Shown one piece after another: positions 3,212 to 40,417 of a stretch of 40,547 bases of DNA. The stretch spans positions 1-40,547 of IMG/VR virus record IMGVR_UViG_3300045988_136392. The stretch is one strand, 5' to 3'. Below the pieces are notes generated by a model, which ran no database searches, was not told where the DNA came from, and was given only the letters and a program-made list of their open reading frames with translations. Source of the DNA: a virus. How positions within the stretch are numbered: position 1 is the stretch's first letter; each line of letters begins with the position of its first letter. Both the position numbers and the translations under genes were made by a program.

Positions 3212-3337
3212 ATGGAGAACTATATTGGCGATAGTTGCGTGAAATCATCAACGCACTTGATAAACGCAGCTCAAACGCTGAAAACGCTCCTAATCTCGTC
3301 TGCGCTGGGAAGAGTTTGGGAAGAATCGGCTCCAAAA
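3212..3337 (+). pseudogene. N-terminal remnant of host XRE-S24 gene left at attL (MENYIGD... then phage-derived out-of-context sequence)
   Basis: ATGGAGAACTATATTGGCGA encodes MENYIGD, matching MNYIGD at 39752. After the 15-bp core the sequence diverges into phage DNA and stops after 42 codons. Confidence 0.5.
3217..3231. repeat. attL core (GAACTATATTGGCGA), putative
   Basis: Exact 15-bp direct repeat of 39754-39768, about 40 bp from the integrase stop codon. Confidence 0.65.
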
Positions 3338-4455
3338 CGCTGAATTTTAGCGGTTTCTGCCGCCAAATCGCGCTCGTGAATCCTTGCGTATATGTCCATC
3401 GTTGTCGTTATGTCGCTGTGCCTTGCCATCTGCTGAATAGCCTTGATGTTCATGTCGCTCATGCAGAGATACGAGACGAACCAGTGGCGCAGATCGTGGG
3501 GGCGCGGGTCATCGAAGCCAAGCTCGGAACCGAGCTTCTTCCATGCCCTGTTGAGCGTTGAGTACGATTCCTGCTCATATATAAGATTGGTCGATACGTA
3601 CGTTTCGGGCGTTTGCGTCAGTTGAAGCGCCTTCATGTTGTTTGCCTGCGTCACGCGCCACATAGCGAGCATATCGGCAAGCGTGTCTATCATCGGGAGC
3701 GTTGCGTTCGCCGCCTTGCTCTTCGTCCCCTTGATCGTTATGAAGCCGCCCTGAATGTCCTTCCATTGCACAGCCAACGCTTCGTTTGCTCGGCAACCAG
3801 CGAGCAGGGCGAGCAGCAGAGCCATACAACGAGGGTCTTGCTGATCGTATATGTCGTAAGCCAAACGCTCGAACTGCTTAACGCTTATGGCGTTGACCTC
3901 TCGCTGATCCTTCTTCACGCTTGAGTACCCTGCAAATGGGTTGCGGCTTGCGTAGCCTTTGGGGATCGCAAAGTGCGTCATCATGCCAGAGAGCGCAGAG
4001 CAGTATATGTTGATGGTGTTACCGCTGTAGCGCCTTCCGCTGAGCGTCTTCCCATCTATCCAGCCTTTGACCATATCGACAACGTGCTTGTCGGTGATCT
4101 GCGACACGGGCAAGGCTCCGATACAATGGCAGACCGCCTTAACGGCACATTGGCGGGAGTACCGCGCATTTTCGGAAAGCTGGTGGAACGGATCGGCGGT
4201 ATCAAGCCAAAGCTCGCAGCATTGGCTGAGCGTCATCTTCTTCGATTCTGCGTGGCTCATCCCGAGCAGCTTGCGCTTGAAATCCTCGCGAGCTTGAACG
4301 GCTTCGGTGTAGCTGCCGTGAAAGGTCATCGCCCTTTGGGCATACTTTCCCGTGGCAGGGTTGATTCCTACGCTTATCTTGATCTTCCATTTGCGGCATT
4401 TCGATTTAGGCTTGTCCTCCATCGCGTATATGCCGCCTATGCCCTTCGTTCTCAT
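3271..4455 (-). CDS. int: tyrosine integrase (phage integrase family)
   Basis: C-terminal catalytic region with R...HDLRH....ARHSDITTTMDIYARIH (R-H-R-Y catalytic signature of tyrosine recombinases). N-terminal SAM-like domain. Confidence 0.95.
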   Translation of the reverse strand: MRTKGIGGIYAMEDKPKSKCRKWKIKISVGINPATGKYAQRAMTFHGSYTEAVQAREDFKRKLLGMSHAESKKMTLSQCCELWLDTADPFHQLSENARYSRQCAVKAVCHCIGALPVSQITDKHVVDMVKGWIDGKTLSGRRYSGNTINIYCSALSGMMTHFAIPKGYASRNPFAGYSSVKKDQREVNAISVKQFERLAYDIYDQQDPRCMALLLALLAGCRANEALAVQWKDIQGGFITIKGTKSKAANATLPMIDTLADMLAMWRVTQANNMKALQLTQTPETYVSTNLIYEQESYSTLNRAWKKLGSELGFDDPRPHDLRHWFVSYLCMSDMNIKAIQQMARHSDITTTMDIYARIHERDLAAETAKIQRFGADSSQTLPSADEIRSVFSV

Positions 4456-4467
4456 GGCAGCCGCCTT

Positions 4468-5212
4468 TCAGCTCATGATGCCGTACTCTGTTCTCTCGCT
4501 TATCGTCTCCCAGCCTTCATCGCCGTCTACTTGCCTGTACTTGAGCGCGTATATCGAGTATCCGTTTCTGTTGGAATCGAACTCGAGCATGTACCCATCA
4601 CGCTTGCGCCAAAGCACGTACTGCCCGTTTTCGAGGCTTCCGTCCTGCGTGTACCTCGTTGTTAACTGCATCGTGTCCTTGTTGTCGTAGGTGCACGGCG
4701 CGTCCTCGCCTGTAGGCACGCTGCATTCCACATAGCATTCGACAGGGCACCTTGGGGGGGTCTCCGTATGGCTCTGGCGGAATCGCTTTGATAACGCCGA
4801 ACGTGTAGTGGAACCTGCTCTTGTCCTTGTAGGACGGTCCAAGCACGCAGGCTTCCTTCATGATTCGTCCGTACTCGTTCGAGGGCCAGCCGTCCGTTGC
4901 GCGATCAGCTTGAGAGAACACGTACCAAGAGTGCAATATTGCCTGCATGTTTCTGGTGTAGTTCGGCTCTTCGAGGTCGCACCACTCGCTTTCTTCGACT
5001 TCGCCGGTTGCCTTGTCTATTCTTCGGCGTACGTGATAGCTGACGTTGCAGAAGTCGAACCCGCACGGCGCAACAGGCTCAAGCGTCCTGATTTCATCGA
5101 ACGTAAGGAACTCGTATCGCTTTTGTTCGCTTTGCGAAGTCGGTTCCTCCTGTGGCCTTGCGTGCTTTGCATTGATGACGTTTCTCTCCCCGAACCTTTC
5201 GAGCAATCCCAT
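4468..5212 (-). pseudogene. lysogeny-module gene of unknown function interrupted by a frameshift at a G7 (C7 on coding strand) tract
   Basis: ORFs 4598..5212 and 4468..4842 (minus) overlap in different frames. Removing one base from the homopolymer at 4754-4760 fuses them into one ORF of about 248 aa. Confidence 0.5.
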
Positions 5213-5225
5213 GTCTGAGACTCCT

Positions 5226-5894
5226 TTATAACCGAACGACCGCGTACACGACCTTGCCGAGAATCCTGACCTCTGGCGAAGATTGGTCTGTGGCATCGAT
5301 GATCATCCGCTTGTGGGACGGATTGGTGCTGTCAGGCTCAAGCACGATGAATCCGTCCATCTTCTTTATGCGCTTGACGGTAGCGTCATCGCCGTTGACC
5401 TTCACCAGCGCAACATCCCCGCTTTGAGCGTCAACGTGCGTATCTATCAGGGCGTACGACCCATCGGTTAGGACGTTGTTCATCGAATCGCCCGTTATCT
5501 GGATGAAGTAGTTCCCCTTTTTGCAATACTCTTCTGGGCATGGGATCGACCCGCAGTCAAGCTCGAACGCTGGGCATGGCTCGCCAGCGTATGCGGCTCC
5601 GATGATGGGAAGCGAGCCAGAAGCGGCAATGGGCTTTATCTTGCCATCAAATCCAGCAAGGCGCGTTTTGGCGTAATATCCATCGGAGTATCCGAACAGA
5701 TCGTTCTCCGTGACGTTGAAAACGCTGCAAAGTTGCTCGATCGCGTCTTTGCTGTTCGGACTTGTTCCCCTGTTCTCCCAATGGGAAACGGTTGCAGTTG
5801 TTATATCGAGTGCAGCGGCTAGCCTTGCCTGCGTCATATTCCTATCTTCGCGAAGAGCGCGGAGGTTCTTCCCGAAGTTGCTGTTTCGTGCCAT
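5226..5894 (-). CDS. CI-like prophage repressor (XRE-HTH + S24 LexA-like peptidase)
   Basis: N-terminal HTH (QARLAAALDITTATVSHWENG). C-terminal S24 with Ser (ITGDSM) and Lys (ATVKRIKK) dyad. Start at internal ATG 5894 with RBS. The upstream part of the long ORF lies in an AT-rich promoter region. Confidence 0.9.
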   Translation of the reverse strand: MARNSNFGKNLRALREDRNMTQARLAAALDITTATVSHWENRGTSPNSKDAIEQLCSVFNVTENDLFGYSDGYYAKTRLAGFDGKIKPIAASGSLPIIGAAYAGEPCPAFELDCGSIPCPEEYCKKGNYFIQITGDSMNNVLTDGSYALIDTHVDAQSGDVALVKVNGDDATVKRIKKMDGFIVLEPDSTNPSHKRMIIDATDQSSPEVRILGKVVYAVVRL

Positions 5895-6038
5895 AGGGTG
5901 TCCTTTCTTTCGCCCTATATACATTTTAGTTTTTATAAAAAAGTTTTGCATAAACCAAAAATATATATTTACAAACTTAAATGTATAAAATAATATATAC
6001 ATCAACGAAAGGAACCCAACCGAAAGGCGGCAGCGAAG
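5895..6038. promoter_or_regulatory. AT-rich divergent promoter/operator region of the genetic switch with TATACAT half-sites
   Basis: Markedly AT-rich 144 bp between cI-like (-) and the rightward early genes. TATATACAT at 5916-5924 and ATATATACATC at 5994-6004 match the half-site of the 6275-6298 palindrome. Confidence 0.55.
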
Positions 6039-6260
6039 ATGATGAACGCAGATGACATCAAAAAGGGCATCGAGTGCATGAAGGCTCAGAAGAAGAGCCT
6101 TGAGGAAGAGATGATTGATCTTAAAACGCACCTGGTCAGGGGCATTTACGACATGGGAAGCGAGGAGCTTATCATGGTTGCAAACAGGATCGCATACCTT
6201 GAGAAGCGAATCGAAGCGGGACGGGCGAAGATCGATCTTGCTGAGCTTATCGTCCGCTGA
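6039..6260 (+). CDS. small early protein (73 aa), coiled-coil-like, unknown function
   Basis: ORF with RBS-like AAAGGCGG upstream. No HTH recognisable. Confidence 0.45.
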   Translation: MMNADDIKKGIECMKAQKKSLEEEMIDLKTHLVRGIYDMGSEELIMVANRIAYLEKRIEAGRAKIDLAELIVR

Positions 6261-6274
6261 TTTTTTTTGCACTC

Positions 6275-6298
6275 GATGTATACAAAAACGTATACATC
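6275..6298. promoter_or_regulatory. perfect palindrome GATGTATAC-N6-GTATACATC (putative operator)
   Basis: 9-bp arms are exact reverse complements. Shares the TATACAT half-site with the cI upstream region. Confidence 0.55.
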
Positions 6299-6498
6299 AG
6301 TCAGTTAGCCGATGAATGGGCGGCTGCAAGCCGTATTAGAAGCGGGGATTTGGAACACACCGCAGCCGTTCATTCAGCGCCTAACGGCGGCGCTAAGCGC
6401 CTACGGGACTAAACACTTCTCCTAACCAGCGGATTCTTGCTAACCCTCCACCCGTAGGCGCTTTTAGAAAACAAAACGACAGACAGAAAGGAGTACGA

Positions 6499-6720
6499 AT
6501 GGACGAATGCGAGCATTACGAGAAGCGCGTTCTGCGGTATTGCGGATTCACGCCTACTAAGATGGCTCGAATCCTCGGTATCTCGCTTCCAACGGCAACG
6601 GCGAGGTTCAACGACCCGTCAACCCTCAAGGCTGACGAGCTGAAGCTTATGTTCGAGGAGCTTCACGATGATGACGCTAGGGAGATGTTCCTATCGATCA
6701 TCGGAAAAAGGAGCGCATGA
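6499..6720 (+). CDS. small HTH protein, Cro/early regulator candidate
   Basis: AAAGGAG RBS. Segment TKMARILGISLPTATARFN is HTH-like. Confidence 0.5.
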   Translation: MDECEHYEKRVLRYCGFTPTKMARILGISLPTATARFNDPSTLKADELKLMFEELHDDDAREMFLSIIGKRSA

Positions 6721-7127
6721 TGCGCGAAATCCAGCGATGGAGCAGAGCCGAGGACGCTGTTATCAGGCGCTATCGGGATCAGGGAGCTTACAGGATTCGC
6801 AAGCAGCTTCGCACCATGTGCGGCACGGATCGAACGATTGAAGCGATCCGCATGAGGGCAAGCCGCAAGGGCGTATCCCTTGCCAAATACAGGCAATGCG
6901 ATGTTTGCGGCGCTGTTCTCAACTCGCACAACAACAGCGGCAAATGCCCCGACTGCAACCTTGCAGACCGCATAGAGAACATGCAGCAGCGCAAGCGCCA
7001 CCTCGAATCGCTTGAGCGCAAGGAAGCCGATACCGAGCTAAGACGCATATACAACGCAGAGCGCCAGGCGGTGCGGCGAATGGAAAACCGCCTGAAAAAA
7101 AGTTCCGAAAAAAATACGGCGCTTTGA
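6717..7127 (+). CDS. zinc-ribbon protein (CxxC...CxxC), unknown function
   Basis: CDVCG...CPDC motif. Start overlaps the preceding stop (ATGA). Confidence 0.5.
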   Translation: MMREIQRWSRAEDAVIRRYRDQGAYRIRKQLRTMCGTDRTIEAIRMRASRKGVSLAKYRQCDVCGAVLNSHNNSGKCPDCNLADRIENMQQRKRHLESLERKEADTELRRIYNAERQAVRRMENRLKKSSEKNTAL

Positions 7128-7193
7128 CCAGGCAATTAACAGTTTTTGTAACGGAAATTCACGTTTCCAACACACAAGAAAGGACGAAGAAAG

Positions 7194-7547
7194 ATGGAAA
7201 AGAAGATCACGAAGAAAATCCGCAAGAAGGTCGCAGAGTGCATGAGTGAATCGATCGATGCAGTCGAGGTCATGCGAGTTTCGGAATCTATCGGAATCAC
7301 CGCTGACGCTATCTATGCGGTTCCTGGCGATGCTGTTCATCTTGCGAAAATCATCGTTCTTGGCGAGGACGAGGAGATTGACGATAAGCGATTAAACCGT
7401 ATCGCTTACGGTCTTTGGGTTTCCGTTGACGCGCTTGAGGAATGCGGCATCCACTTCGGCGGCGATGTCTACTGCACAACCGTCCTTGTCTGGCTCCGTA
7501 CTGATGGGAGCATCGCGCATGTTGCGATCATCGCTAAAGGAATGTAG
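7194..7547 (+). CDS. hypothetical early protein
   Basis: RBS GAAAGGACGAAGAAAG then ATG. No recognisable domain. Confidence 0.5.
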   Translation: MEKKITKKIRKKVAECMSESIDAVEVMRVSESIGITADAIYAVPGDAVHLAKIIVLGEDEEIDDKRLNRIAYGLWVSVDALEECGIHFGGDVYCTTVLVWLRTDGSIAHVAIIAKGM

Positions 7548-7549
7548 CG

Positions 7550-7786
7550 ATGGCAACGCGACTTTACACACCGCCTGAGCTGGCGAAACTGCTCAACGTA
7601 TCGGCTAAGACGATAAGGGAGAGTTGCGCGGCTGGGAGGATTCAAGCCTACGACTTCGGGGACGGAAGCTCCGTCATGTGGAGGATTCCGTTCGATGAAT
7701 CTGAGATGAAGAGCATCGGAAGGAGGAACGCAAAATGCGCCTATACGAAGGAAAGGCTCCGCGCCAACGCACAGCAAAACCGATGA
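7550..7786 (+). CDS. excisionase/MerR-type HTH (HTH_17-like) DNA-binding protein
   Basis: PELAKLLNVSAKTIRESCAAGRIQAY is the typical HTH_17/Xis-like N-terminal helix-turn-helix. Confidence 0.5.
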   Translation: MATRLYTPPELAKLLNVSAKTIRESCAAGRIQAYDFGDGSSVMWRIPFDESEMKSIGRRNAKCAYTKERLRANAQQNR

Positions 7787-7960
7787 TGCGGAAGCCTAAC
7801 CCACAACGCAATCATACCACCGCAGCAGCAGCGGAAAGGGAGCTGATGGCTTACGTGACGATCTTCTTCCTTGCCTTTTGGGCGATGGTTCTGCCCGAGT
7901 TCATAGCAGCAATAAGCAAGACCATCTTCGGATAAACGGAACCAGAGAGAAAGGAAAGGC

Positions 7961-8863
7961 ATGGAAGAAGCAAAGATCATCGAGAACGATCTTGCATTGA
8001 TCGAGATCGACACAGGCGAGGTAACGAGCCTGATCCTCGGCATGGATGCCGAGATAAGGAACTGCTCGGACATTGTAGCCGAGCTGAAAGGAAGCATCGA
8101 CCAGCTTCCAGAGATGCAGACGGAGGACGTTAAGCGCATCGCAACCGACATCAACGGGCATCTGAAACACGCAGATGAAGCGCGCAAACGCTTCAAGCGC
8201 GAGTGGAAGAAGCCGCAGGACAAGGTTGAAGCGGCTTTCAAGCAGGCGATTGAGCCTATGACCGAGCTTGTCAACGCCTACAAGGGCGAAGCGGCTAAAC
8301 GCGATCAGCAGATCAGGCAAGAGAGATATGAGCTGCTCTGCGAGTTTTACGAAGCCGATGCGCCAACGCTTGCGGCGCTTGTCCCGATCGAGCGTTTCGG
8401 GATCGTCAGAGACAAGATGAGCATTGCAAAGTCTTGGAGCCTGATAAAGGCGCAGGAGAAGCTTCACGCGCTGCTTGTGCAGGCGCTGAGCGATTGGGCG
8501 GCTCTGAAAACAAGTCACCTTGCGTTCGAGAAGGAAGCGGAAGCGGAGTTTTTTCGAACCCTCAGCCTACAGGCGGCGCTGAACCTCAACGCCATGAGGG
8601 AAGAGGAGCAGGCGCGGATCGACCAGCTCAACGCAGAGATGGGCGTTGCGCCAGAGCCAGAGCCGATGCCAGAACCAGAACCGCAGCAAGAGCCTATGCC
8701 GCAGGTTCAGCAGCAGGAACAGCCACCGTGCGAAGAAGAGCCTAGGAGCTTCACGATCACATGCAGGATGACGGAATGGCAGAAGCAGCAGGTCATCGGC
8801 TTTTTGAAATCAATCAGCGTATCAGGAACGATCAGGGAGGTTCGCGATGAACCAGCTATCTAA
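7961..8863 (+). CDS. phage recombination-module protein, DUF1351/Gp157-like
   Basis: Position immediately upstream of RecT and general composition. The family call is by recollection and not verified. Confidence 0.45.
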   Translation: MEEAKIIENDLALIEIDTGEVTSLILGMDAEIRNCSDIVAELKGSIDQLPEMQTEDVKRIATDINGHLKHADEARKRFKREWKKPQDKVEAAFKQAIEPMTELVNAYKGEAAKRDQQIRQERYELLCEFYEADAPTLAALVPIERFGIVRDKMSIAKSWSLIKAQEKLHALLVQALSDWAALKTSHLAFEKEAEAEFFRTLSLQAALNLNAMREEEQARIDQLNAEMGVAPEPEPMPEPEPQQEPMPQVQQQEQPPCEEEPRSFTITCRMTEWQKQQVIGFLKSISVSGTIREVRDEPAI

Positions 8864-9488
8864 AAGCTATGAAGCAAACGGGCAGTCGATTACCCTCACG
8901 GCGCAAGACGTGATCGACTACATCTGCCCACTTGCAACGCCAACGGAAGTGAAGATGTTCCTAGAGATTTGCGCTGCTTACGGCTTGAACCCGTACGTAA
9001 AGGACGCTCACCTGGTCAAATACAAGGCTAACTCGCCTGCAACGATGGTCGTGGGGAAAGATTTCTACACAAAGACTGCGGCGAGCAACCCGACATTTGA
9101 CGGAATGGAAGCGGGGATTTCCGTCATCGGAACCGATGGGTCGTTCCACAGGCGCGAAGGCTCGATGCTCATGCCGGGCGAGCAGCTTGTGGGTGGCTGG
9201 GCAAAAGTCCACATCAAAGGGAGAAGCGTTCCGAGCTTCGATGAAGTCGGTTTCAACGAGTACGCAGGGAAGAAGTACGATGGCTCGCTCAACCAGCAAT
9301 GGGAATCAAAGCCAGCAACGATGATCAGGAAATGCGCGGTTGTCCATGCCCTGCGCGAAGCCTTCCCCGCCAACTTCGCGGGACTTTACGACAGCGCGGA
9401 GATGGGGATCGAGCCAGAGGAGATTCCCGCTGCGACAGCACAGCAGACTGCTACAGAGCAAGAGCAAACTTACGAAGAGACTTTCTAA
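8847..9488 (+). CDS. recT: RecT-family single-strand annealing recombinase
   Basis: Conserved RecT segments ...ICAAYGLNPY..DAHLV... and ...TMIRKCAVVHALREAFP... Confidence 0.9.
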   Translation: MNQLSKSYEANGQSITLTAQDVIDYICPLATPTEVKMFLEICAAYGLNPYVKDAHLVKYKANSPATMVVGKDFYTKTAASNPTFDGMEAGISVIGTDGSFHRREGSMLMPGEQLVGGWAKVHIKGRSVPSFDEVGFNEYAGKKYDGSLNQQWESKPATMIRKCAVVHALREAFPANFAGLYDSAEMGIEPEEIPAATAQQTATEQEQTYEETF

Positions 9489-9503
9489 AAGGAGACAGAG
9501 CCA

Positions 9504-10133
9504 ATGGCAATCAACAAGGCAACCATCACGGGCAACATCACCCGCGATCCTGAGCTTCGACAGACGCAGGGCGGCACAAGCGTCCTCGCAATCGGCGTAG
9601 CGGTGAACGATCGCCGCAAGAACCAGCAGACGGGGGAATGGGAGGATTACCCAAACTTCATCGACTGCACGATCTTCGGGAACCGCGCAACGGGCGTTGC
9701 CCCTCACCTGGAGAAGGGCATGAAGGTAGCGATCGAAGGCAAGCTCAACCAGTCGCGCTGGCAGGCTGAGGACGGCACCAACCGCAGCAAGATCGAGATC
9801 ATCGTTGACGAGATCGAGTTCATGAGCCGCCAGCAGGGACAGACCGCGAGCAAGCCAGTACAGCAACAGCCGCAGCAGTTCGCCCCTCAGCCTATGCAGC
9901 AACAGGCGCAGCCGCAGCAGTTCGCCCCTCAGCCTATGCAGCAACAGGCGCAGCCGCAGCAGTTCGCCCCTCAAGCGGCACCGCAGCCTATGCAGCAACA
10001 GCCGCAGCAGTTCGCCCCTCAGCCTATGCAGCAGCCTATGCAGGCGGCACCAGTGCAGCAGGCTATGCCGATGATGCAGCAGCAGGCACCGCAGCAGGTG
10101 GCGAGCATCTATGACGAAGATATTCCGTTCTAA
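9504..10133 (+). CDS. ssb: single-stranded DNA-binding protein (SSB) with Q/P-rich repeat linker and acidic DEDIPF tail
   Basis: OB-fold N-terminus MAINKATITGNITRDPELR...W..., and a C-terminal DDIPF-type tip. Confidence 0.9.
   Translation: MAINKATITGNITRDPELRQTQGGTSVLAIGVAVNDRRKNQQTGEWEDYPNFIDCTIFGNRATGVAPHLEKGMKVAIEGKLNQSRWQAEDGTNRSKIEIIVDEIEFMSRQQGQTASKPVQQQPQQFAPQPMQQQAQPQQFAPQPMQQQAQPQQFAPQAAPQPMQQQPQQFAPQPMQQPMQAAPVQQAMPMMQQQAPQQVASIYDEDIPF
9862..10040 (+). repeat. 42-bp in-frame tandem repeats (about 3.5 copies) inside the SSB linker
   Basis: CAGCAGTTCGCCCCTCAGCCTATGCAGCAACAGGCGCAGCCG repeated, encoding QQFAPQPMQQQAQP. Confidence 0.85.
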
Positions 10134-10324
10134 GGGCGGGGATTGATCGTTTACGGGCGGGGTTGCGCTGGCTGCCAGACAATCCCGCAATCAATCCAAC
10201 CTTTGCAGGCTAAGGAGCTGCCAGGGACGATGCGACACGGCAATGTCATTGCCTACAGGGTATACGGATGCCGCTGCATCGAGTGCCAAGAGTGGCAGCG
10301 AAGGAACAGGAAGGAGGGCAAGAG

Positions 10325-10735: not shown

Positions 10736-10797
10736 ACCAAACTAAACCAATCCAAGAGAAGAAAAGGGAATCCAAGCCATCGTTTTCCCTTCAATGT

Positions 10798-12147: not shown

Positions 12148-12353
12148 CACCAGCGGCGCAGGCAGAAGAGGAGGAGCGGGAGAGGATAGCGATGGCGAAG
12201 AAGCTACGTTGCATTGACTGCGATTCCGCCAGGGCGTGGTGCGTTGGCGGGACGAACATGCAGACAGGCTACTGCACGCTCAACGACATGCCGCTCTCGA
12301 GCAGCGAGCTGCAAAGCAGCCAATGGGACATGTGCGGGACTGATGCGCTGTGA
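12144..12353 (+). CDS. small Cys-rich protein
   Basis: CIDCD....C.....C motif. Translationally coupled. Confidence 0.35.
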   Translation: MTPAAQAEEEERERIAMAKKLRCIDCDSARAWCVGGTNMQTGYCTLNDMPLSSSELQSSQWDMCGTDAL

Positions 12354-13376: not shown

Positions 13377-14561
13377 TTGAGACAGCAACCGGAGTTGACG
13401 GTCGAGGAGGTTCCGACCGATGAGCTTGTGCCTTACGCGAGAAACGCTAAGGTTCACACGAACGAGCAGATCGACCAGATCGTTAAGAGCATCGAGGAGT
13501 TCGGCTTCAACGACCCCATCGCCGTATGGCACAACGAAGATGGCGCAATGGAGATCATCGAGGGGCATGGGCGCGTTCTGGCGGCTAAGAAGCTCGGTCT
13601 TGACGTTCTGCCCGTTGTAACGCTCGATCACCTCACAAACGACCAGCGCAGAGCGTACACGCACGTTCACAACCAACTGACGATGAACACTGGCTGGGAC
13701 TTGGAAACGCTGAGCTTCGACCTTGACGAGCTTGATTTCGATTTCGAGGATTTCGGGTTTTCATTCGATGCAGATTTCAGGGGCAGCGAATGGGACGGCA
13801 CCGAGCTATCGACCGATGGAAGAGCATCGAATGAGGATTACGAAGCGTTTACAAGCAAGTTCGATCCTAAGCTGACCACAGATGATTGCTACACGCCCGA
13901 TTATGTGTATAAGGCTGTGAAGGAATGGGCGTGTGACGCTTACGGTATAGATCAGGACAAATGCGTTAGACCGTTTTACCCTGGCGGCGATTTCGAGAAT
14001 TTTGACTATCCCGAAGGCTGTACGGTTCTCGACAATCCTCCGTTCTCTATCATGGCGAGGATCATCGATTTCTATGAAGAACGAGGAATCAAGTATTTTC
14101 TTTTTGCACCTCAGCTTACGCTTTTCAGCGGGAACCGTCCGTGCAACTACATATGCGCAGGCATAACAATCGAATACGAGAACGGCGCAAAGGTTAATAC
14201 GGGATTTGTCACGAGCTACGGAGACTGGAAGGTTGACACGGCACCAGATTTGCATGAGCTGGTTGAGGATGCCCAGCGAAAGGCGAAGAACGAGCAAAAA
14301 GGCGAGCCGATGAACAGCTGGCAGCTTCCAGACAATGTGATAACGGCAGCGATGATGGCTAAGCTTGGAAAGCGCGGCATTTCCTTGCGCATTCCCGATG
14401 CTTCTTGCTCATTCGTTCGAAAACTTGATAACCAAAAGCCAGGCGCGGCTCTTTACGGGGGGGTTCCTGCTTTCAATGAGCGCGGCTGCGGACAAAGCGG
14501 CTGCGGACAAAGCGGCTGCGGACAAAGCGGCTGCGGAAGTTGTCGAGCTTTCCGATCGTGA
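13377..14561 (+). CDS. ParB-like nuclease domain protein with C-terminal methyltransferase-like (NPPF motif) region; C-terminus ambiguous because of a G7 tract
   Basis: N-terminal ParB/Srx-like LVPYARNAKVHTNEQIDQIVKSIEEFGFNDPIAVW...IEGHGRVLAAKKLG. Downstream CTVLDNPPFS resembles MTase motif IV. The alternative frame after 14457-14463 gives a more protein-like C-terminus ending at 14589. Confidence 0.65.
   Translation: MRQQPELTVEEVPTDELVPYARNAKVHTNEQIDQIVKSIEEFGFNDPIAVWHNEDGAMEIIEGHGRVLAAKKLGLDVLPVVTLDHLTNDQRRAYTHVHNQLTMNTGWDLETLSFDLDELDFDFEDFGFSFDADFRGSEWDGTELSTDGRASNEDYEAFTSKFDPKLTTDDCYTPDYVYKAVKEWACDAYGIDQDKCVRPFYPGGDFENFDYPEGCTVLDNPPFSIMARIIDFYEERGIKYFLFAPQLTLFSGNRPCNYICAGITIEYENGAKVNTGFVTSYGDWKVDTAPDLHELVEDAQRKAKNEQKGEPMNSWQLPDNVITAAMMAKLGKRGISLRIPDASCSFVRKLDNQKPGAALYGGVPAFNERGCGQSGCGQSGCGQSGCGSCRAFRS
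14482..14541 (+). repeat. 15-bp tandem repeat (GCGGCTGCGGACAAA x3 + partial)
   Basis: Directly visible. In-frame in both overlapping reading frames (CGQSG or AADKA repeats). Confidence 0.85.
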
Positions 14562-20053: not shown

Positions 20054-20608
20054 ATGCAAAAGCAAAACGATCCAGAAGAGAACAAGCTTTCTGCGCAAGG
20101 AGCAGGCGAGAACGCCAACGGTGAAGGCGCACAGGGCGATAACGCCAATGGCGGCAACGCCAACGGTGAAGGCGCACAGGGCGAGGGAAACGATGGCGAT
20201 GACGGCAAGGTGCTAGACAGCCACGGTCAGCCAGGGATCAACAAGGAGCGCCACGACAAAGAGGTTGCCGAGTTGAGGAAGCAGATCGAGGAGCTTAAAG
20301 CCGATGCCGCAGAAGCCGCAGAATCGAAGGCTAAGCGCGCTGAGTACGAGCAGAAGGTCAGCGACCTTGAGGGCAAGCTTGCCGATTCCGAGCTGTCGCG
20401 AAAGCTTGAGAAGGTAGGTTGCCGATCCGTCAAGGCTGCAAAGGCTCTGCTTCCCGATTATGACGGAGACGTTGAGAAGCTACGCGCTGCCGAGCCGTTC
20501 CTGTTCGAAGAGGTCAAGCCTACTGGCTCCACGGGATTCAAGCCGAAGGCGGCTGATCCCAAGGACGATCAGGAGGAGCTTGACAAGCTATTCGGAATCA
20601 AGAAGTAA
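20054..20608 (+). CDS. capsid scaffolding protein
   Basis: Low-complexity acidic N-terminus, coiled-coil, and C-terminal ...LLPDYDGDVEKLRAAEPFLFEE... typical of Firmicutes phage scaffold proteins. Immediately upstream of the major capsid gene. Confidence 0.75.
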   Translation: MQKQNDPEENKLSAQGAGENANGEGAQGDNANGGNANGEGAQGEGNDGDDGKVLDSHGQPGINKERHDKEVAELRKQIEELKADAAEAAESKAKRAEYEQKVSDLEGKLADSELSRKLEKVGCRSVKAAKALLPDYDGDVEKLRAAEPFLFEEVKPTGSTGFKPKAADPKDDQEELDKLFGIKK

Positions 20609-32384: not shown

Positions 32385-32385
32385 C

Positions 32386-33381: not shown

Positions 33382-33605
33382 GACCGAGGCCGTTTGCCGA
33401 TTTGATTGCAACCCAAAAGTTATAAAGCGGTAATAAAACGAAATACAGGCTGGTCATGCTCTATTTTTATAAGCATGGAAATGGAGTACGAAAGACGATT
33501 GCCGAGGCAGTTGATGCGCGGACGGAAGCGAACGTGCAGGCAGCCTAGGTGCGCGCCTACCCACCAGTAAAAGAAAGGGAAACCAAGAAAGTTAGGGGAA
33601 GGGAA

Positions 33606-34274: not shown

Positions 34275-34315
34275 CCATTGCTTCAAGCGAAAAAACGAAT
34301 ATCTGAACTAACCAG

Positions 34316-34349
34316 GCAAGCCGCCCATCGGGGCGGCTTTCTTCGTTTT
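34316..34349 (+). terminator. Rho-independent terminator after the response regulator
   Basis: CAAGCCGCCC-ATCG-GGGCGGCTT plus T-run. Confidence 0.75.
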
Positions 34350-34359
34350 AGGAGCAGAT

Positions 34360-34840
34360 ATGTTCAACGGATACCAGCCATCGTTCCCAATGCCGTACCA
34401 GATGCCTCAGATGCAGCAACCGCCGCAGCAGGGCATCCAGTTTGTGAACGGCATCGAGTCAGCGCAGATGTACCAGCTGCCGCCGAACAGCCAGCAGATC
34501 CTCATGGACAGGAACCAGGCGCGGTTCTACATGGTGGAAACCGACGCAAGCGGGCAGAAGTCAGTGTCGGCGTACGACTTCCAGGCTGTAGCCGATGCTC
34601 CTACGGAGTACGCCACGAAGGACGACCTAAGGAGCTTGCATGAATCCGTTACTGAGCAGATCAAACGCGCAGTCGAGGCAGCAGCGCCCCGACCTGATGG
34701 GGTTCATCAGCCAAACGAATCCGCAGCAGGCCAGGCGGCAGGTGGAGCAGATGCTTCAAGACGGGCGAATCACGCAAGACCAGTTATCCCAGCTGTTTGA
34801 CCAGGCGAGGCAGATAGGGAAGAGCCTTGGGCTTAAGTAG
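34360..34840 (+). CDS. hypothetical Q/P-rich protein, apparently split into two frames (34360.. and 34640..34840)
   Basis: Two overlapping ORFs. Removing one base near the GCGCCCCGAC run (about 34688-34697) would fuse them. Confidence 0.35.
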
Positions 34841-34895
34841 CCACCTAACTCGCGAGAGGTGATTTATATGCAAATCTTAGAAGAAGGAGCACGAA

Positions 34896-35528
34896 ATGGA
34901 GACTTCTACCCCTAGCCTTTCGGACATCGCGGCGGTGACGAAGGACAACGACTTCGGCGGCGGAACCTGGATTTGGGTTATCGTCTTGTTTCTGTTCATG
35001 TGGGGCAACGGATGGAACCGCAACACGGGCAACGGCACCGAACCCGTCACCGAGGCGGGGCTTTGCAATGCCATGAACTTCAACAACCTCGAGAACGCCG
35101 TCGGTCGCATGAGCGACCAGCAGGCCGCAATCGCGCGCCAGACCGACAACGGAATCTGTAACCTCGGATACGAGAACCTGCGCAACTTCGCGCAGACCCA
35201 GCAGACCATCCAGAACGGCGACTACGCGCTCGCCCAGCAGATGTCCGATTGCTGCTGCAAGACCAACCGCAACATCGACGACCTGAAGTACAACGCTTCC
35301 ATGAATACGGCAGCCATCAACGAGAACACCACCGCTCAGGTGCAGAAGGTTCTCGACGCTATCTGCCAAGGCAAGATCGAGGCGCTTCAGGCTCAGGTAA
35401 GCCAGCTACAAATGCAGAACGCACTCTGTGGCGTGGTTCGATATCCAAGCGCAACAACCTACAACGCTGGCTTCAACCCGTACTTCAATGGCGCAGCCTG
35501 CGGTTGCGGAACCTCGTTTGCGGCGTAG
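34896..35528 (+). CDS. hypothetical membrane-anchored Cys-rich protein
   Basis: AGGAGCAC RBS. One N-terminal TM (WIWVIVLFLFMWG). Multiple Cys (CCC, GCGC). Confidence 0.5.
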   Translation: METSTPSLSDIAAVTKDNDFGGGTWIWVIVLFLFMWGNGWNRNTGNGTEPVTEAGLCNAMNFNNLENAVGRMSDQQAAIARQTDNGICNLGYENLRNFAQTQQTIQNGDYALAQQMSDCCCKTNRNIDDLKYNASMNTAAINENTTAQVQKVLDAICQGKIEALQAQVSQLQMQNALCGVVRYPSATTYNAGFNPYFNGAACGCGTSFAA

Positions 35529-35537
35529 GTGATCGCG

Positions 35538-35957
35538 ATGGGTTGCAAGATCGCACGCTTTATCTATGACAGCGACACAGCTCAGGCAGTGGCGGCTGGG
35601 CAGAACATCCTGTTCAGCAACGTTGTTAGCAAGACAAGGTCGATTCAGGGAAACGGTTCTGGTGGAATCCAGCTCAAAACGCCTGGGACATACCGTGTCA
35701 TCTCGAGCTTCACCATCGATGCAACGGCTGCTGGCGCTGTGAGCGTTCAGATGAGCAAGAACAACGTTGCGGCAACGGGAGGAAGGGCGGGTGCCACTAT
35801 GGCGGCTGCCGGAGACATTGCCACGTTGTCTATCGTCGATTACGTGACCGTTCTCCCTGGGGCGAGCGGGTCGTACGCAACTCTGACGTTCTCCCCCGAC
35901 TCTGGGGTTGGCGTTAGGACGGCAAGCGTGCTCGTCGAGAAAGCATGCTCCTGTTAG
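35538..35957 (+). CDS. hypothetical protein, possibly a C1q/BclA-C-like beta-sandwich
   Basis: AGGTGA RBS. Alternating hydrophobic beta-strand pattern. Confidence 0.4.
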   Translation: MGCKIARFIYDSDTAQAVAAGQNILFSNVVSKTRSIQGNGSGGIQLKTPGTYRVISSFTIDATAAGAVSVQMSKNNVAATGGRAGATMAAAGDIATLSIVDYVTVLPGASGSYATLTFSPDSGVGVRTASVLVEKACSC

Positions 35958-35960
35958 TAC

Positions 35961-36000
35961 GCAAGGCGCATCCCCTCAAGGCGGATGCGCCTTTTTCTTT
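35961..36000 (+). terminator. Rho-independent terminator
   Basis: GCGCATCCCCTCAAGGCGGATGCGC plus T-run. Confidence 0.75.
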
Positions 36001-36015
36001 GCACTGCGACACGAG
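36001..36015 (+). promoter_or_regulatory. conserved late-operon element, copy 3 (GCACTGCGACACGAG)
   Basis: Same CTGCGACACG core directly after a terminator, 43 bp before the holin start. Confidence 0.5.
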
Positions 36016-36057
36016 GCGAAGATTTCGCTGTATGCAATTAAGGCGAGGAGAGATTGT

Positions 36058-36414
36058 ATGGATTGTTTCTTTACAGAGGAGCAGCAATGGGTGATCTGGA
36101 TCACTGCCTCATTTGTGGTCCTCGACGTTGTGAGCGGAGTCATGAAGGCGGCTAAAGCGGGCGAACTGTCAAGCTCAAAGATGAGAGAGGGCCTTTGGCA
36201 CAAGTCTGGATACGTGCTGATCGTATGCCTTGCTGTGCTTATTGAGGTTGGGAGCCAGCATGTCAACATTGGGTTCGAGATGCCACTTATACTCCCTGCC
36301 TGCCTCTACATCATAGGCAGCGAGGTCATGTCAATCTACGAGAACGCGAAGGCGATAAACCCCGACCTTAACGATTCGAAGCTTTCCCAGTATTTCGAGA
36401 AGAAGGAGCAGTGA
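36058..36414 (+). CDS. holin
   Basis: Small protein with 3 TM segments and ..LDVVSGVMKAAKAGELSSSKMREGLWHK.. resembling the phage_holin_4_1 family. Directly upstream of the endolysin. Confidence 0.8.
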   Translation: MDCFFTEEQQWVIWITASFVVLDVVSGVMKAAKAGELSSSKMREGLWHKSGYVLIVCLAVLIEVGSQHVNIGFEMPLILPACLYIIGSEVMSIYENAKAINPDLNDSKLSQYFEKKEQ

Positions 36415-36531
36415 TGGGCGATTACGAGGTTGACACTTCAACAGTGGAAGAGCTTGCGGCGATGCCGAGCGAGACGGTTACGGACGAGGAGATTCCAGAT
36501 CAGACGGCTGAGGTGCTGGAAGGGAGAGAAG

Positions 36532-37377
36532 ATGGCAACTGCTAGCGACTTCGTTGCCGTGGCTGCAAGCCAGATCGGCGTTAAGGAGAACCCTGCGGGG
36601 AGCAACCACGTAAAGTACGGCGAGTGGTACGGACTTGATTACAACCCATGGTGCGATATGTTCGTGTCCTGGTGCGCAGACCAGGTGGGCGCTTTGGGAA
36701 TTGTCGGAAAGTTCGCTTACTGCCCCTCGCACGTCAACCACGCAAAGAAGCTTGGGCGTTGGCTCGACCGCGAGGAGAAGCCGCAGAAGGGCGATATTGT
36801 GTTCTTCTCGAACGGCTCCCGTGCCTGCCACGTGGGAATCGTGGAATCGCGCAACGGCTCCGCAAGTGTAACCACCATCGAGGGCAACACCTCGGTAAGC
36901 AGCAACGACAACGGGGGAGCTGTAATGCGCAGAACGCGATCCTACGGCGTTAAAGGCTCCAATTGGTTCATTATGGGGTTCTTCCGTCCCGCATGGGACG
37001 GGCAAAGCGCAAACATTCCTTCTCCCGAGCCTTCGCAGGATTCGACCAGCAACAGCGGTTGGTCGTTCTCCGATTGGGTGCGCCGTTTGCAGCGCGAGTG
37101 CAACGCTCAAGGCTACTCACATCAAGCGGTCGATGGCATTCCCGGTGCAAACACGCTGAACGGCTGCCCTCAGCTTGGGCGCAAATCGCGCGGGAACATC
37201 ACGGCGCTGATGCAAGAGCGTTTGATTGTCCTAGGCTACAATTGCGGCTCGTGCGGTGCTGACGGCATCAACGGTGGCGATACGCAGCGAGCTGTAAGGG
37301 CGTTTCAGGCTGACAACGGACTTGACGATGACGGTGTCGTTGGGCGCAACACATGGCGCAAGCTGCTTGGGCTGTAG
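36532..37377 (+). CDS. endolysin: CHAP peptidase/amidase domain + C-terminal PG_binding_1 repeats
   Basis: CHAP Cys (NPWCDMFVSWC) and His (ACHVGIV). C-terminal ...RAVRAFQADNGLDDDGVVGRNTWRKLLG PG-binding motif (x2). Confidence 0.85.
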   Translation: MATASDFVAVAASQIGVKENPAGSNHVKYGEWYGLDYNPWCDMFVSWCADQVGALGIVGKFAYCPSHVNHAKKLGRWLDREEKPQKGDIVFFSNGSRACHVGIVESRNGSASVTTIEGNTSVSSNDNGGAVMRRTRSYGVKGSNWFIMGFFRPAWDGQSANIPSPEPSQDSTSNSGWSFSDWVRRLQRECNAQGYSHQAVDGIPGANTLNGCPQLGRKSRGNITALMQERLIVLGYNCGSCGADGINGGDTQRAVRAFQADNGLDDDGVVGRNTWRKLLGL

Positions 37378-37388
37378 TAGGTTAGATA

Positions 37389-39341
37389 ATGAGAACGCAC
37401 ACAATCAAGGTACGCGGCCGCCGCGCCTCGATCGACGACCGCATGCTCGTTCAGGGCACCGTGGGCGAGGACGTGTTGGCGCTCGACTTGGACGAGGAGT
37501 GGGACGGCCTTGTGGTCACCGTAGCCTTCAAGTGGCAGCATGACTCCTCCATAGTCGCCAAGCAGGTTGAGGGCGGCTATGAGGTTCCATGGGAGTGCAA
37601 CCAGCAACCAGGCAAGGTACTCATTGCAGTCGAGGGAACCAAGGACGGCAAGGTGATGCGCCACGCGACCATCGGCCATCCCATGGTGGTGCTGCCGTCC
37701 GAGGAGGCATCGGGCACCTCCCCGACGGACCCCACGGTGAGCGAGTACCGCAAGGTGTACGAGGACGTGAAGCTGGCAACCGCCACCGCCAACGGGGCCG
37801 CCGACGATGCCAAGGAGGCTGCGGAGGATGCCCTCGTTGCGGCAGGCAACGCGGACGCTCAGGCCGCAGCCGCGCAGCTTGCATCGCAGGTAGCCGCCAA
37901 CGCCGCCGCCGACGTGAAGCGCCGCGCCGACTCGGGCGAGTTCAAGGGGGAGAAGGGCGACAAGGGCGACCCTGGCGAGCAGGGCATCCAGGGAATCCAA
38001 GGCGTTCCTGGGGCGCAAGGCGACCCAGGGGAGAAGGGCGATCCTGGCCCAAAGCTCACCTTCGCCGACCTGACGGAAGCCGACAAGTCTGAGCTTCAGA
38101 AGCCAGCCGCCGACGCGGCTGCAACGGCAAACGCTGCGGCGAAGGCGGCAAACGATGCGGCAGACGCGGCGAACACGGCTGCGGAAGCGGCCGTCTCCGA
38201 CGCGCAGGCCGCAATCGCCGAGGTCAAGGCAACCGAAGCCAAGCTGTACCCTGCGGCGGAGAACATCCTAGTCGGGAGCGAGACTGGAACGGTCGCGCAT
38301 GTGGAGGACGCTTTCTCTGGTGCGGCTCTGCGAAAAATCACGGTCGAGGGAGCTTGCAAGCAAGACGGAATCCCAAGCCCCGAATCGCCTAAGCCAATCA
38401 CGGTGATTGAGCATCCTGCCGTGAAGGTTGTGGGTCGAAACCTGTGGCCATTTGCTAGCTCTTATACGTCCATCGAGGGGCATCAGAACGAGTTCGTGAA
38501 TGACAAAACGCCACTCACGATTCTTCCTGGCACATACACGTTCCAGGCTGTCGGCTCGCTCGGGAACACGGATGCGCCGCTTTTCGGATACACGGCTACG
38601 GGCAAGCGCATCCAGCTCTTTCGAATCTTTCGTAATGTCAAAAACCCGAAATACAGCTTTACCGTCACGGAGCCTATCACCTCGGTTTACTTCGTATCGA
38701 ACGCGGCAGACTCCAACACAGGAACCATTTCCAGCATTCAGCTAGAGCGCAATTCAACCGCGACGGAATACAAGCCTCACACCTCCCAAACGCTAACCTT
38801 CGCACTCCCCGCAGAGCATCCCTACTTGGCCAAGCTCCCCGACGGCACGGCGGACGAAATCACGGTGGACAGAGACGGCAACGTCGAGCTTGTGACGCGG
38901 GTTGAGCGAGTGCTACCGAGTGATTATCGCAAGTTAGATTTCGGCGACGGTGGCGATGGTTCAGCGTATGTGTCGCTTAGACTTAATCATGCCAGCATAA
39001 TAGCAAACAGTCTTATGTGCAGCTCATATACGCCTAGCAACCCCACAATCAAAAGCGGGTTCATCTACACACCAAACTATACGAACATAGTGATTCGCGA
39101 CGACCGATTCACATCGAAAGATAAGGCAATCGAATTGTTGGATGGTGTAGTCGTGTATACCGCGGTGGAGCCGACGCGTTACCCCTTAGGAAAAATCGAG
39201 ATGCCAAAGGCGCAAGACAGCATCGTCAACACCTGGACTGACGCGGAAGTCACGCCGAACACAGGAATCAAGTACGTGCGCGACGTGAACATCGTCGTCG
39301 CGAACATCGAAAAGGCAATCGCATCCATCACCGAAGGTTAG
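37389..39341 (+). CDS. tail-fibre-like protein with collagen (G-X-Y) repeats and lower-GC C-terminal globular domain, located downstream of the lysis cassette
   Basis: GEKGDKGDPGEQGIQGIQGVPGAQGDPGEKGDPGP collagen run. Ala-rich coiled coil. N-terminal domain resembles BppU-type N-domains. Visible GC drop after about 38300. Confidence 0.7.
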   Translation: MRTHTIKVRGRRASIDDRMLVQGTVGEDVLALDLDEEWDGLVVTVAFKWQHDSSIVAKQVEGGYEVPWECNQQPGKVLIAVEGTKDGKVMRHATIGHPMVVLPSEEASGTSPTDPTVSEYRKVYEDVKLATATANGAADDAKEAAEDALVAAGNADAQAAAAQLASQVAANAAADVKRRADSGEFKGEKGDKGDPGEQGIQGIQGVPGAQGDPGEKGDPGPKLTFADLTEADKSELQKPAADAAATANAAAKAANDAADAANTAAEAAVSDAQAAIAEVKATEAKLYPAAENILVGSETGTVAHVEDAFSGAALRKITVEGACKQDGIPSPESPKPITVIEHPAVKVVGRNLWPFASSYTSIEGHQNEFVNDKTPLTILPGTYTFQAVGSLGNTDAPLFGYTATGKRIQLFRIFRNVKNPKYSFTVTEPITSVYFVSNAADSNTGTISSIQLERNSTATEYKPHTSQTLTFALPAEHPYLAKLPDGTADEITVDRDGNVELVTRVERVLPSDYRKLDFGDGGDGSAYVSLRLNHASIIANSLMCSSYTPSNPTIKSGFIYTPNYTNIVIRDDRFTSKDKAIELLDGVVVYTAVEPTRYPLGKIEMPKAQDSIVNTWTDAEVTPNTGIKYVRDVNIVVANIEKAIASITEG

Positions 39342-39350
39342 GAGACACCA

Positions 39351-39590
39351 ATGGCAGTTAAGAGCAAGGCACGGCACGACCTCACATTGCGCAGCATCAA
39401 GCGCGAGATTCAGGCGGGGCGCGACGTGGCGTTCTGGTTGGATAAGGCGTACACGCACCTGGATTCTGGTCTCTTCGACGAGGCCGACATCGCAGAGGTC
39501 GAGGAGCTTGCCGCCGCGTACTACGACGAGGAAGACAGGCTCTACGCCGACTTGGATGTGGACTCGGCAGAGGCGGCGGAGGCGCAGTAG
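39351..39590 (+). CDS. small acidic protein (79 aa), possible fibre assembly/accessory factor
   Basis: AGGAGACACCA RBS then ATG. Acidic C-terminus. Confidence 0.4.
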   Translation: MAVKSKARHDLTLRSIKREIQAGRDVAFWLDKAYTHLDSGLFDEADIAEVEELAAAYYDEEDRLYADLDVDSAEAAEAQ

Positions 39591-39631
39591 CAGAGTCCGA
39601 TCAGAAGTATTTTGATGAATAAATCCGACAC

Positions 39632-39670
39632 TGAGCGAGAACGAATCTGGGAAGAATCGTTCTCGTTTTT
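39632..39670 (+). terminator. Rho-independent terminator at the right end of the prophage
   Basis: GAGCGAGAACGAATC ... GAATCGTTCTCG plus TTTTTT. Confidence 0.75.
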
Positions 39671-39711
39671 TCATTCTCGATTTTCCTGTGTTCGGCAAAA
39701 TCTGCGTTTCC

Positions 39712-39737
39712 TCAGAACCGTCAGAACCCTCAGAACC
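39712..39737 (+). repeat. TCAGAACC x3 (9-bp period) direct repeats adjacent to attR core; candidate recombination arm/accessory sites
   Basis: Directly visible, ending 16 bp before the core. Confidence 0.5.
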
Positions 39738-39751
39738 ATAGGTGAATCCGA

Positions 39752-40417
39752 TTGAACTATATTGGCGACAACATTCATGCAATTCGCGGTAACTTCGGTT
39801 TGTCGCAAGAGCAGCTTGCAGCGATAGCGGAAGTGAGCCAGACTTCCGTCTCCGCCTGGGAATGCGGGCAGACTATCCCGCGTTTTTCCAATGCCGTGAA
39901 GATAGTTGAATCTTTGCCTAGCCTGACTATGGACGATGTGTATAGCCAGGTGCTTGGGTACGCGCGCAGGGTATTGCAGCAAGCGCATCCAGAGTCTGGA
40001 TCGTCGTTCGGATTTGTTCCCTTGTATGGATCTATTGCTGCGGGTGCTCCCATCGAGATGCTTCAGATCGAGGAAATCCATCCTGTGCCCAATGCGCTGT
40101 TGCTGCGTTATCCGAAAGCGTTTTATTTGCGCGTTAAGGGCGAATCTATGAATAGGGTCCTGCCCAACGGCAGCTATGCATTGGTTTGTCCCACTTCGGA
40201 AGTTGTAGACGGATCTGTGTATGCGGTAAGCGTTGGTTCATCGAATGCGACGGTGAAGCGGGTGCGAAAACTAAATAACGGAATTGCCCTAGAACCTGAT
40301 TCGAATGACCCCACCTATAAGTCTCAGGTATTTGATTACGGAGATGGGGAACGTGAAACCCTGTCTGTTATTGGCAGAGTCGTGTGGTTTTGTGTGCCTT
40401 ACGACTATGAGATTTAG
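39752..40417 (+). CDS. XRE-HTH + S24 peptidase (LexA/CI-like) regulator; host-side att target gene with phage-supplied 5' end
   Basis: HTH (LSQEQLAAIAEVSQTSVSAWECG). S24 Ser/Lys (VKGESM, ATVKRVRK). TTG start with an AGGTGA RBS lying in phage-derived sequence. Paralogous to the prophage CI (5226-5894). Confidence 0.8.
   Translation: MNYIGDNIHAIRGNFGLSQEQLAAIAEVSQTSVSAWECGQTIPRFSNAVKIVESLPSLTMDDVYSQVLGYARRVLQQAHPESGSSFGFVPLYGSIAAGAPIEMLQIEEIHPVPNALLLRYPKAFYLRVKGESMNRVLPNGSYALVCPTSEVVDGSVYAVSVGSSNATVKRVRKLNNGIALEPDSNDPTYKSQVFDYGDGERETLSVIGRVVWFCVPYDYEI
39754..39768. repeat. attR core (GAACTATATTGGCGA), putative
   Basis: Exact copy of 3217-3231. Forms codons 2-6 of the downstream XRE-S24 gene. 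Confidence 0.65.

Follow-up and report, generated by a model that had tools for sequence, protein, structure and literature searches.

We describe the attachment (att) sites of a temperate prophage in IMG/VR virus record IMGVR_UViG_3300045988_136392, of which positions 1 to 40,547, a stretch of 40,547 nucleotides, were analysed (hereafter the window). The prophage is integrated at the extreme 5' end of a chromosomal gene for a regulator that combines an XRE-type helix-turn-helix (HTH) with an S24 peptidase domain. In our reading, to which we assign a probability of about 0.8, lysogeny uncouples or silences this dispensable regulator, and the new translation start that the phage contributes in the window is a lineage-specific trait that is not demonstrably selected.

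The ends of the prophage are marked by the 15-bp sequence GAACTATATTGGCGA. A search of the window found exactly two copies, both on the + strand, at 3217-3231 and 39754-39768, as reported in a first-pass annotation made from the sequence alone; there are no further copies in the window even when two mismatches are allowed. The left copy (attL core, B-O-P') lies inside ATGGAGAACTATATTGGCGAT and ends 39 bp from the stop codon of the integrase gene (int). ATGGAGAACTATATTGGCGAT opens an open reading frame (ORF) of 43 residues (3212..3343, + strand), MENYIGDSCVK and onwards to a stop, in which the native ATG and codons 1-7 of the regulator are fused to phage DNA, antisense to the 3' end of int. The first-pass annotation had recognised this orphaned 5' remnant at about 40 bp from the integrase stop. 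The right copy (attR core, P-O-B') forms codons 2-6 of a 221-residue ORF with a TTG start (39752..40417, + strand). This gene had been described as an intact XRE-HTH/S24 gene, and its product indeed matches HTH_3 and Peptidase_S24 in Pfam.

An exact 15-mer repeat alone is unremarkable in a window of 40.5 kb. This window has eight dispersed exact direct repeats 15 nt or longer, and shuffled sequences contain about 0.9 repeated 15-mers. The case for an att site therefore rests on the position of the repeat and is decided by comparison with other contigs. With the 221-residue protein as query, a homologue search yielded 222-residue proteins, P0001 and P0002, which begin MENYIGDNIHAIRG. Four empty-site contigs of the same species (L001-L004) encode this uninterrupted MENYIGDNIHAIRG allele and provide attB. 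They align to the window with 98-99% identity up to position 3231 and resume at 39754, with 15 bp common to both alignments, and only 3232-39753 is missing from them. Their gene order is SDF transporter (- strand), a 97-residue gene (p97, - strand), a 69-residue gene (p69, - strand) and the regulator (+ strand). The junction reads ...GGACCGATGGAGAACTATATTGGCGACAACATTCATGC... verbatim in all four, which is the continuous gene that the first-pass annotation had predicted for an uninfected strain.

The excised form, also predicted at that stage, was recovered by an exact search for the expected attP sequence. attP is contiguous in IMGVR_UViG_3300045988_129151 (L005/L006), and it lies in the interior of the human-gut contig OHME01000291.1 (L135, 38,041 bp), which carries int, the core and the right-end phage arm in one piece and whose two alignments to the window overlap by 15 bp. 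Both phage-only contigs are collinear with the prophage and join its two ends. attL is also present in L011, and attR recurs in ten or more other lysogen contigs, which share the downstream host genes (TerC, NAD kinase). The core is identical in attL and attR, and a single copy is found in attB of phage-free genomes and in contiguous attP. The prophage ends are the 15-bp core, and the insertion site is proven. We found no excision junction or empty site that joins elsewhere, for instance at the 80-bp tRNA repeats at the ends of the window.

Some contigs show small indels at or near the core. The attR of L013 has an extra A after GGCGA, the attP of L009 has a 1-nt deletion within the core (GAACTAT-TTGGCGA), and in the attP of L130 TAGA is duplicated directly 3' of the core; such indels may stem from recombination or from errors in assembly. 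The first bases of L035 (Eggerthella sp. CAG:209 scaffold FR884637.1) are AACTATATTGGCGAC, an assembly break at the att core that suggests a mixed population in the sample, either of lysogens and non-lysogens or of several phages.

The inserted element (3232..39753) is about 36.5 kb long (36,537 bp for the unique phage DNA plus one core copy). PHROG matches identify genes for an integrase, CI, large terminase, portal, major head protein, tape measure, tail proteins and endolysin and a tail-fibre/collagen-like gene. Given also its absence from empty sites and the collinear phage-only contigs, the element is a complete temperate tailed phage. Its integrase (394 residues; 3271..4455, - strand) belongs to the tyrosine family (Pfam PF00589 Phage_integrase, E=2.9e-20; phrog_1, E=4.8e-57), with catalytic residues R222, H320-x-x-R323, H346 and Y356 assigned by sequence motif. 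A CI-type repressor of 222 residues, again with XRE HTH and S24 domains (Pfam; phrog_4) and starting MARNSNFG, is encoded at 5226..5894 on the - strand. The late region is closed by an intrinsic terminator with a 13-bp stem, a 4-nt loop and a run of six T (39636..39671, + strand), whose loop and stem include TGGGAAGAATCG. The nearest named host genome is Eggerthella sp. CAG:209, at 99% identity, and the host is an uncultured human-gut Eggerthellaceae species resembling it.

At attL, the recombination site can be divided into AACTAT (3218-3223), ATTGGCG (3224-3230) and ATAGTT (3231-3236). The reconstructed attP accordingly reads AACTAT-ATTGGCG-ATAGTT, a 6-bp inverted repeat around a 7-bp spacer. 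AACTAT is a putative core-type site and ATAGTT its inverted partner, and strand exchange probably occurs within the 7-bp overlap ATTGGCG. A secondary site is consistent with this assignment. In contig IMGVR_UViG_3300045988_174042 (attL, L007; attR, L024), a related prophage with a 99% identical integrase is inserted downstream of a radical-SAM/SPASM gene, where the only sequence in common with the primary site is TATTGG(C/T)GATAG. This site retains six of the seven bases of ATTGGCG as well as ATAGT, and the insertion has left the host T in attL and the phage C in attR.

Both arms of the site carry repeats. Three TCAGAACC direct repeats with a 9-bp period are located in the P arm, 17-42 bp from the core (39712..39737, + strand); as the first-pass annotation had noted, they and the terminator precede the right core copy. 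The window has five copies of TCAGAACC against 1.1 expected, and every P-arm variant examined has two or three. They are candidate binding sites for the integrase (as arm sites), for a recombination directionality factor or for a host factor. In the P' arm, TGGGAAGA(G/A)T occurs twice, at +89 and +100 from the core (3306..3328, + strand). These copies match TGGGAAGAATCG at 39648-39659 (-106, in the P arm) and are candidate arm-type integrase sites.

The S24 motifs of the target protein, A98-G99 (putative cleavage site), S133 (nucleophile, in GESM) and K170 (general base, in TVKR), are invariant in 11 orthologues, and by domains and motifs the protein is predicted to be an XRE-HTH/S24 regulator of the self-cleaving CI/LexA-like type. 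It is not LexA proper: it scores 54.7 bits against the LexA equivalog TIGR00498, far below the cut-off of 110.95, and the S24 half alone matches.

Integration separates this gene from its own control region. The sequence 5' of the attL core is identical to that of the empty sites, and the predicted native promoter and translation signals are stranded there (3178..3208, + strand), with an extended -10 element, TTTGATAGCAT, at 3178-3188 and the Shine-Dalgarno (SD) sequence GGGAGGA at 3202-3208. The promoter was inferred by a TANNNT search combined with phylogenetic footprinting. TAGCAT at 3183, preceded by TG, is the sole TANNNT of the intergenic region, and orthologues of 48-96% identity retain TTTGNTAGNAT at a distance of 22-30 nt upstream of their start codons. 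TTTGNTAGNAT is very probably the native promoter; a sigma-70 consensus scan of the region gave no match. The surrounding divergent promoter region contains operator-like palindromes of putative function (3126..3184, no strand assigned): TACCA-N7-TGGTA-like sequences at 3128-3144 and 3168-3184, and a 14-nt inverted repeat with arms at 3126-3139 and 3155-3168. In orthologues, a similar TACCA..TGGTA palindrome overlaps the -10 element.

On the other side of this promoter region lies p69 (2895..3104, - strand), a gene in host DNA that is present at empty sites. It accompanies orthologues of the regulator across the Eggerthellaceae with 30-72% identity (orthologous loci L036-L078), the regulators themselves being 47-76% identical. 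The p69 homologue is nearly always found about 100 bp upstream and divergent, and in one subgroup just downstream. There is no integrase within 5 kb of the target orthologues, and synteny with the SDF transporter, p97 and tRNA-Gly holds within the genus only. Searches of Pfam, PHROGs and NCBIfam with p69 and p97 returned nothing informative, p97 being weakly PRK13678/DUF-like. The target and p69 look like a conserved chromosomal two-gene regulatory module and not like a recent prophage remnant, and an ancient phage origin of the module may be considered. In its layout, the pair resembles a chromosomal CI/Cro-like divergent switch.

At attR, the regulator gene acquires a new start. The TTG codon consists of two phage bases and the first core base, and the phage-derived SD sequence AGGTGA (39740..39745, + strand) precedes it by 6 nt; the attP of L005/L135 has this SD sequence too. 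It pairs perfectly with the 3' tail of 16S rRNA, UCACCU. The interrupted ORF is regenerated in the lysogen of this window, and Glu2 is the sole loss from the 222-residue native protein. At least 41 contigs, in 75 index blocks, encode exactly this 221-residue product (P0121). The first-pass annotation had placed both the ribosome-binding site and the TTG start in prophage-derived DNA, and this holds.

It had also presumed that the phage supplies a promoter, for which the sequence offers no support. From the strong terminator to the TTG there are 79 bp (39673-39751) without any TANNNT, a sigma-70 consensus scan at attR gave no match, and the native extended -10 remains behind at attL. We considered an origin of the phage arm by divergence from the host 5' untranslated region and rejected this: local alignment of the 30-bp flanks gave scores at the level of shuffled sequences, and the phage and host flanks are without homology outside the core.

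Sibling phages with 98-100% identical integrases and the same arm architecture differ at precisely this start codon, with T or C replacing the G of TTG. The attP variants read TTT in L010/L022, L008 and L130, and TTC in L023. TTT is also found at the attR of L013, L018-L021, L115, L120, L124, L126, L127, L129 and L134, and an unbiased scan for the DNA pattern returned attR junctions with TTT in seven out of seven cases. The SD sequence varies in the siblings as well (AGGTAA, TGGTAA, CAGTAA). In TTT lysogens the gene has no supplied start, and the called products of 205 or 162 residues have lost part or all of the HTH. Because phages with nearly identical integrases carry TTT or TTC, start replacement is not conserved across the phage group. 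The original proposal that the phage inserts at the extreme 5' end of the gene and supplies a replacement start is thus correct for the insertion, and for the in-frame SD and TTG of this window, but it does not extend to the siblings.

The regulator itself is dispensable, as phage-free contigs contain three independent loss-of-function alleles of the target gene. One is a +1 T frameshift in a run of five T (CCGCGTTTTTTCC), seen in L012 and L014 from two samples; the second is a nonsense mutation, W36* (TGG to TGA), in L015; and the third is a 2-bp deletion that changes GCGATAGCGG to GCGATCGG in L016.

We read these data as follows. The phage integrated by means of a lambda-type tyrosine integrase and a 14-15-bp core lying in codons 2-6 of the regulator gene. 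Integration has stranded the native extended -10, the operator-like palindromes, the SD sequence, the ATG and the 69-residue partner gene at attL, where the orphaned host promoter now faces the antisense strand of int. The rest of the regulator gene has come to lie at attR, behind the terminator of the phage late operon. In this phage lineage, AGGTGA-N6-TT followed by the first core base, G, creates an SD sequence and an in-frame TTG, restoring the ORF minus one residue in a rebuilt gene without a recognisable promoter. The net effect of lysogeny would most likely be the uncoupling or silencing of a dispensable regulator, with translational re-capping as a lineage-specific trait that is not demonstrably selected.

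Several points weigh against this interpretation. It is unlikely that a full SD sequence and a TTG came together by pure chance, and among the P-arm haplotypes the full AGGTGA is seen only in those with TTG. Public assemblies are rich in the product of TTG lysogens, which is encoded on at least 41 contigs. The collections were sampled differently, and how common TTG lysogens are relative to TTT lysogens cannot be compared across them. Selection for re-capping within the TTG lineage is possible, and the gene at attR may be expressed from a non-canonical promoter, by read-through of the terminator or with a leaderless-type start. We regard functional, selected re-capping as unlikely, or at best somewhat less likely than not.

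A more far-reaching proposal is that the phage has evolved an entire replacement 5' end, with promoter, ribosome-binding site and start codon, that keeps the regulator functional in lysogens, as a 5' mirror image of the strategy used at tRNA 3' ends. It would account for an in-frame TTG placed 6 nt past a perfect AGGTGA, both here and in the attP of L005/L135, for an ORF that is intact save Glu2 and whose product is so widespread, and for the restriction of the full AGGTGA to TTG haplotypes; the dusA-targeting islands are a precedent (PMC4482086). We nevertheless consider it unlikely. No -10-like hexamer is present between the terminator and the TTG and the consensus scan is negative; the siblings have TTT or TTC and an SD sequence that is weaker or absent, as do, with respect to TTT, all seven attR junctions of the unbiased scan; the phage arm is not homologous to the host 5' region outside the core; and the gene has been inactivated repeatedly in phage-free strains.

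We give still less credence to the idea that one base, at the margin of the att core (G versus T or C), is a phage allele that decides between re-capping and decapitation of an SOS-type (S24 self-cleaving) host regulator. The two alleles would then rewire the regulator/p69 module differently, and the orphaned attL promoter, being antisense to int, would couple the stability of the prophage to the regulator. In G-type lysogens with E-type arms (for instance L025, contig ERZ21883234 NODE_6), the G at attR may be host-derived by heteroduplex segregation, with ATGGATAAC predicted at their attL.

Active lysogeny, in which reversible excision would toggle the regulator and p69 and the orphaned, regulator-controlled promoter at attL would modulate int by antisense transcription, is improbable. 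The native promoter and operator-like sequences (3126-3188) do face the 3' end of int, attP and attB forms both occur in metagenomes, and the break of L035 at the core points to mixed populations. Listeria comK phages are a precedent for such a switch. A further one is SpyCI in mutL (PMC3430984). However, the prophage is a complete, ordinary phage, and attB and attR are expected together in metagenomes from strain mixtures and ordinary induction. The static assemblies give no sign of excision without lysis, and the antisense effect on int is conjectural.

Two further alternatives concern the boundaries themselves. The window begins with an 80-bp exact copy (1..80, + strand) of its last 80 bp (40468-40547), comprising the promoter and the 5' part of a host tRNA-Gly(GCC). 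Given this 100% identity, and given that tRNA genes are classical att sites, the window might be taken for a 40.4-kb island in tRNA-Gly or for a circular replicon with a direct terminal repeat. This is refuted by the empty-site loci: phage-free genomes (L001, L036-L040) hold both tRNA-Gly copies, with the SDF-p97-p69-regulator block between them, the empty sites lack only 3232-39753, and on longer contigs the right-hand copy is followed by the host genes TerC and NAD kinase. The 80-bp repeat stems from the duplication of a host gene, where the contig happens to end, and is neither a viral direct terminal repeat nor an att site. It is easily mistaken for a terminal repeat or a circular genome, and calls for caution in the reading of such contigs. 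An Rfam scan of the whole window found tRNAs only. Finally, the 15-bp repeat might be a coincidence, with the real prophage ends elsewhere: the window has seven more dispersed exact repeats 15 nt or longer, and random sequence would yield about one repeated 15-mer. This is refuted by the four att forms, all of which break exactly at the 15-mer in independent contigs.

The target and the phage CI share the architecture of CI/LexA-type S24 repressors, with an N-terminal HTH, a C-terminal S24 domain and the Ala-Gly/Ser/Lys motifs. The HTH of the target is of the XRE type, where LexA has a winged one, and the target is a chromosomal gene with a conserved 69-residue partner. The first-pass annotation had called the target a paralog of the phage CI and possibly a relic repressor, on account of their similar C-termini. 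The C-terminal motifs are real, but the two proteins are only 31% identical (E=1e-33), and the motifs that they share, ATVKR and G(D/E)SM, are those of the S24 catalytic Lys and Ser. As these are found family-wide, they are no sign of a special relationship between target and CI, and the conservation of the target as a chromosomal gene with p69 speaks against a relic. Cross-talk between the two repressors had also been raised as a possibility. TACCA-N7-TGGTA occurs twice at the host promoter and nowhere in the phage immunity region, which carries AT-rich ATGTATAC-type repeats instead, and its window-wide count is at chance level. Judged by these candidate operators, cross-talk is unlikely.

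The components of the integration system are familiar. In the lambda Int/att system, a 15-bp core is identical in both partners, int lies beside attP, inverted core-type sites surround a 7-bp spacer, and the arms carry repeats. Some elements restore the 3' end of the gene they enter, as in tRNA genes or, for e14 and phage 21, in icd, and it is the phage DNA adjoining the core that completes the gene. The prophage described here agrees with these systems in its core, the position of int, the inverted sites, the repeats on both arms and the completion of the interrupted gene by phage DNA. It differs from 3'-restoring integration in that the 5' end is restored, so that promoter and translation signals are at stake, and in that the phage segment is no homologous duplicate of the host segment.

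Integration into 5' ends also has precedents. More than 200 genomes have been described with islands and prophages that encode dusA-specific integrases (Farrugia et al. 2015, NAR 43:4547; PMC4482086); putative -10/-35 boxes are found after their integration, and the replaced segment spans a structural element of the protein (PMC4482086). As in the dusA islands, a tyrosine-integrase element here enters the 5' end of a protein gene, a remnant is left at the far boundary, and the ORF is regenerated by 5' sequence of the element. The dusA islands are found in Proteobacteria, in another host clade and another target, and the likeness noted here is one of insertion pattern. A further difference is that here only one codon is lost, there is no recognisable promoter, and sibling phages differ in the start codon. 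The SpyCI phage-like chromosomal islands of Streptococcus pyogenes enter mutL at its 5' end (Scott et al. 2012; PMC3430984) and separate mutL from its promoter, so that expression requires excision or a promoter borne by the element (PMC3430984). The parting of gene and promoter by 5'-end integration is the same here. SpyCI, however, is a satellite-like island that cycles with growth phase, whereas the present element is a complete phage known from static assemblies, and the interrupted ORF is translationally re-capped. The insertion type is thus already known from the dusA islands and SpyCI/mutL, and no new principle is involved. Particular to this case are the S24 regulator as target, in Coriobacteriia, the replacement of a single codon and the single-base polymorphism of the start.

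With attB, attP, attL, attR and a secondary site, the att site is now fully documented for a group of phages whose host is an uncultured Eggerthellaceae species of the gut. These data can be used for calling prophage boundaries, and the integrase/att pair is potentially useful for genetics in Coriobacteriia. Siblings that differ by one base in whether the start is rebuilt constitute a natural experiment, in which selection for gene restoration is directly testable.

The remaining observations concern other parts of the window. In the host DNA, a stretch of about 750 bp that is poor in ORFs, between tRNA-Cys and the SDF transporter, contains a 60-nt imperfect inverted repeat (615-674 and 741-800) that is 77% complementary, with a 66-nt spacer and no Rfam match. 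In the phage, the immunity region is strongly AT-rich at 5900-6010 and 6270-6296, with TATATACAT/ATGTATA repeats, and a perfect palindrome, GATGTATAC-N6-GTATACATC, comes after a 73-residue ORF (6039-6260). The repeats and the palindrome are candidate CI/Cro operators. In-frame tandem repeats occur within phage genes in three places: 42-nt units coding for Q/P-rich sequence at 9853-10046, 15-nt GCGGCTGCGGACAAA units at 14482-14537, and 15-nt units for peptides rich in Gly, Asn, Ala, Glu and Gln at 20105-20194. The cassette between endolysin and attR (37389-39590 in the window, compared with L025-L034) differs between lysogens. Its variants hold a collagen/tail-fibre-like gene of 627-687 residues together with a 79-residue gene, a collagen-like gene of 308 residues (L033), Bro-N/ANT genes, or nothing, and the cassette beside the att site is a mosaic 'post-lysis' module.

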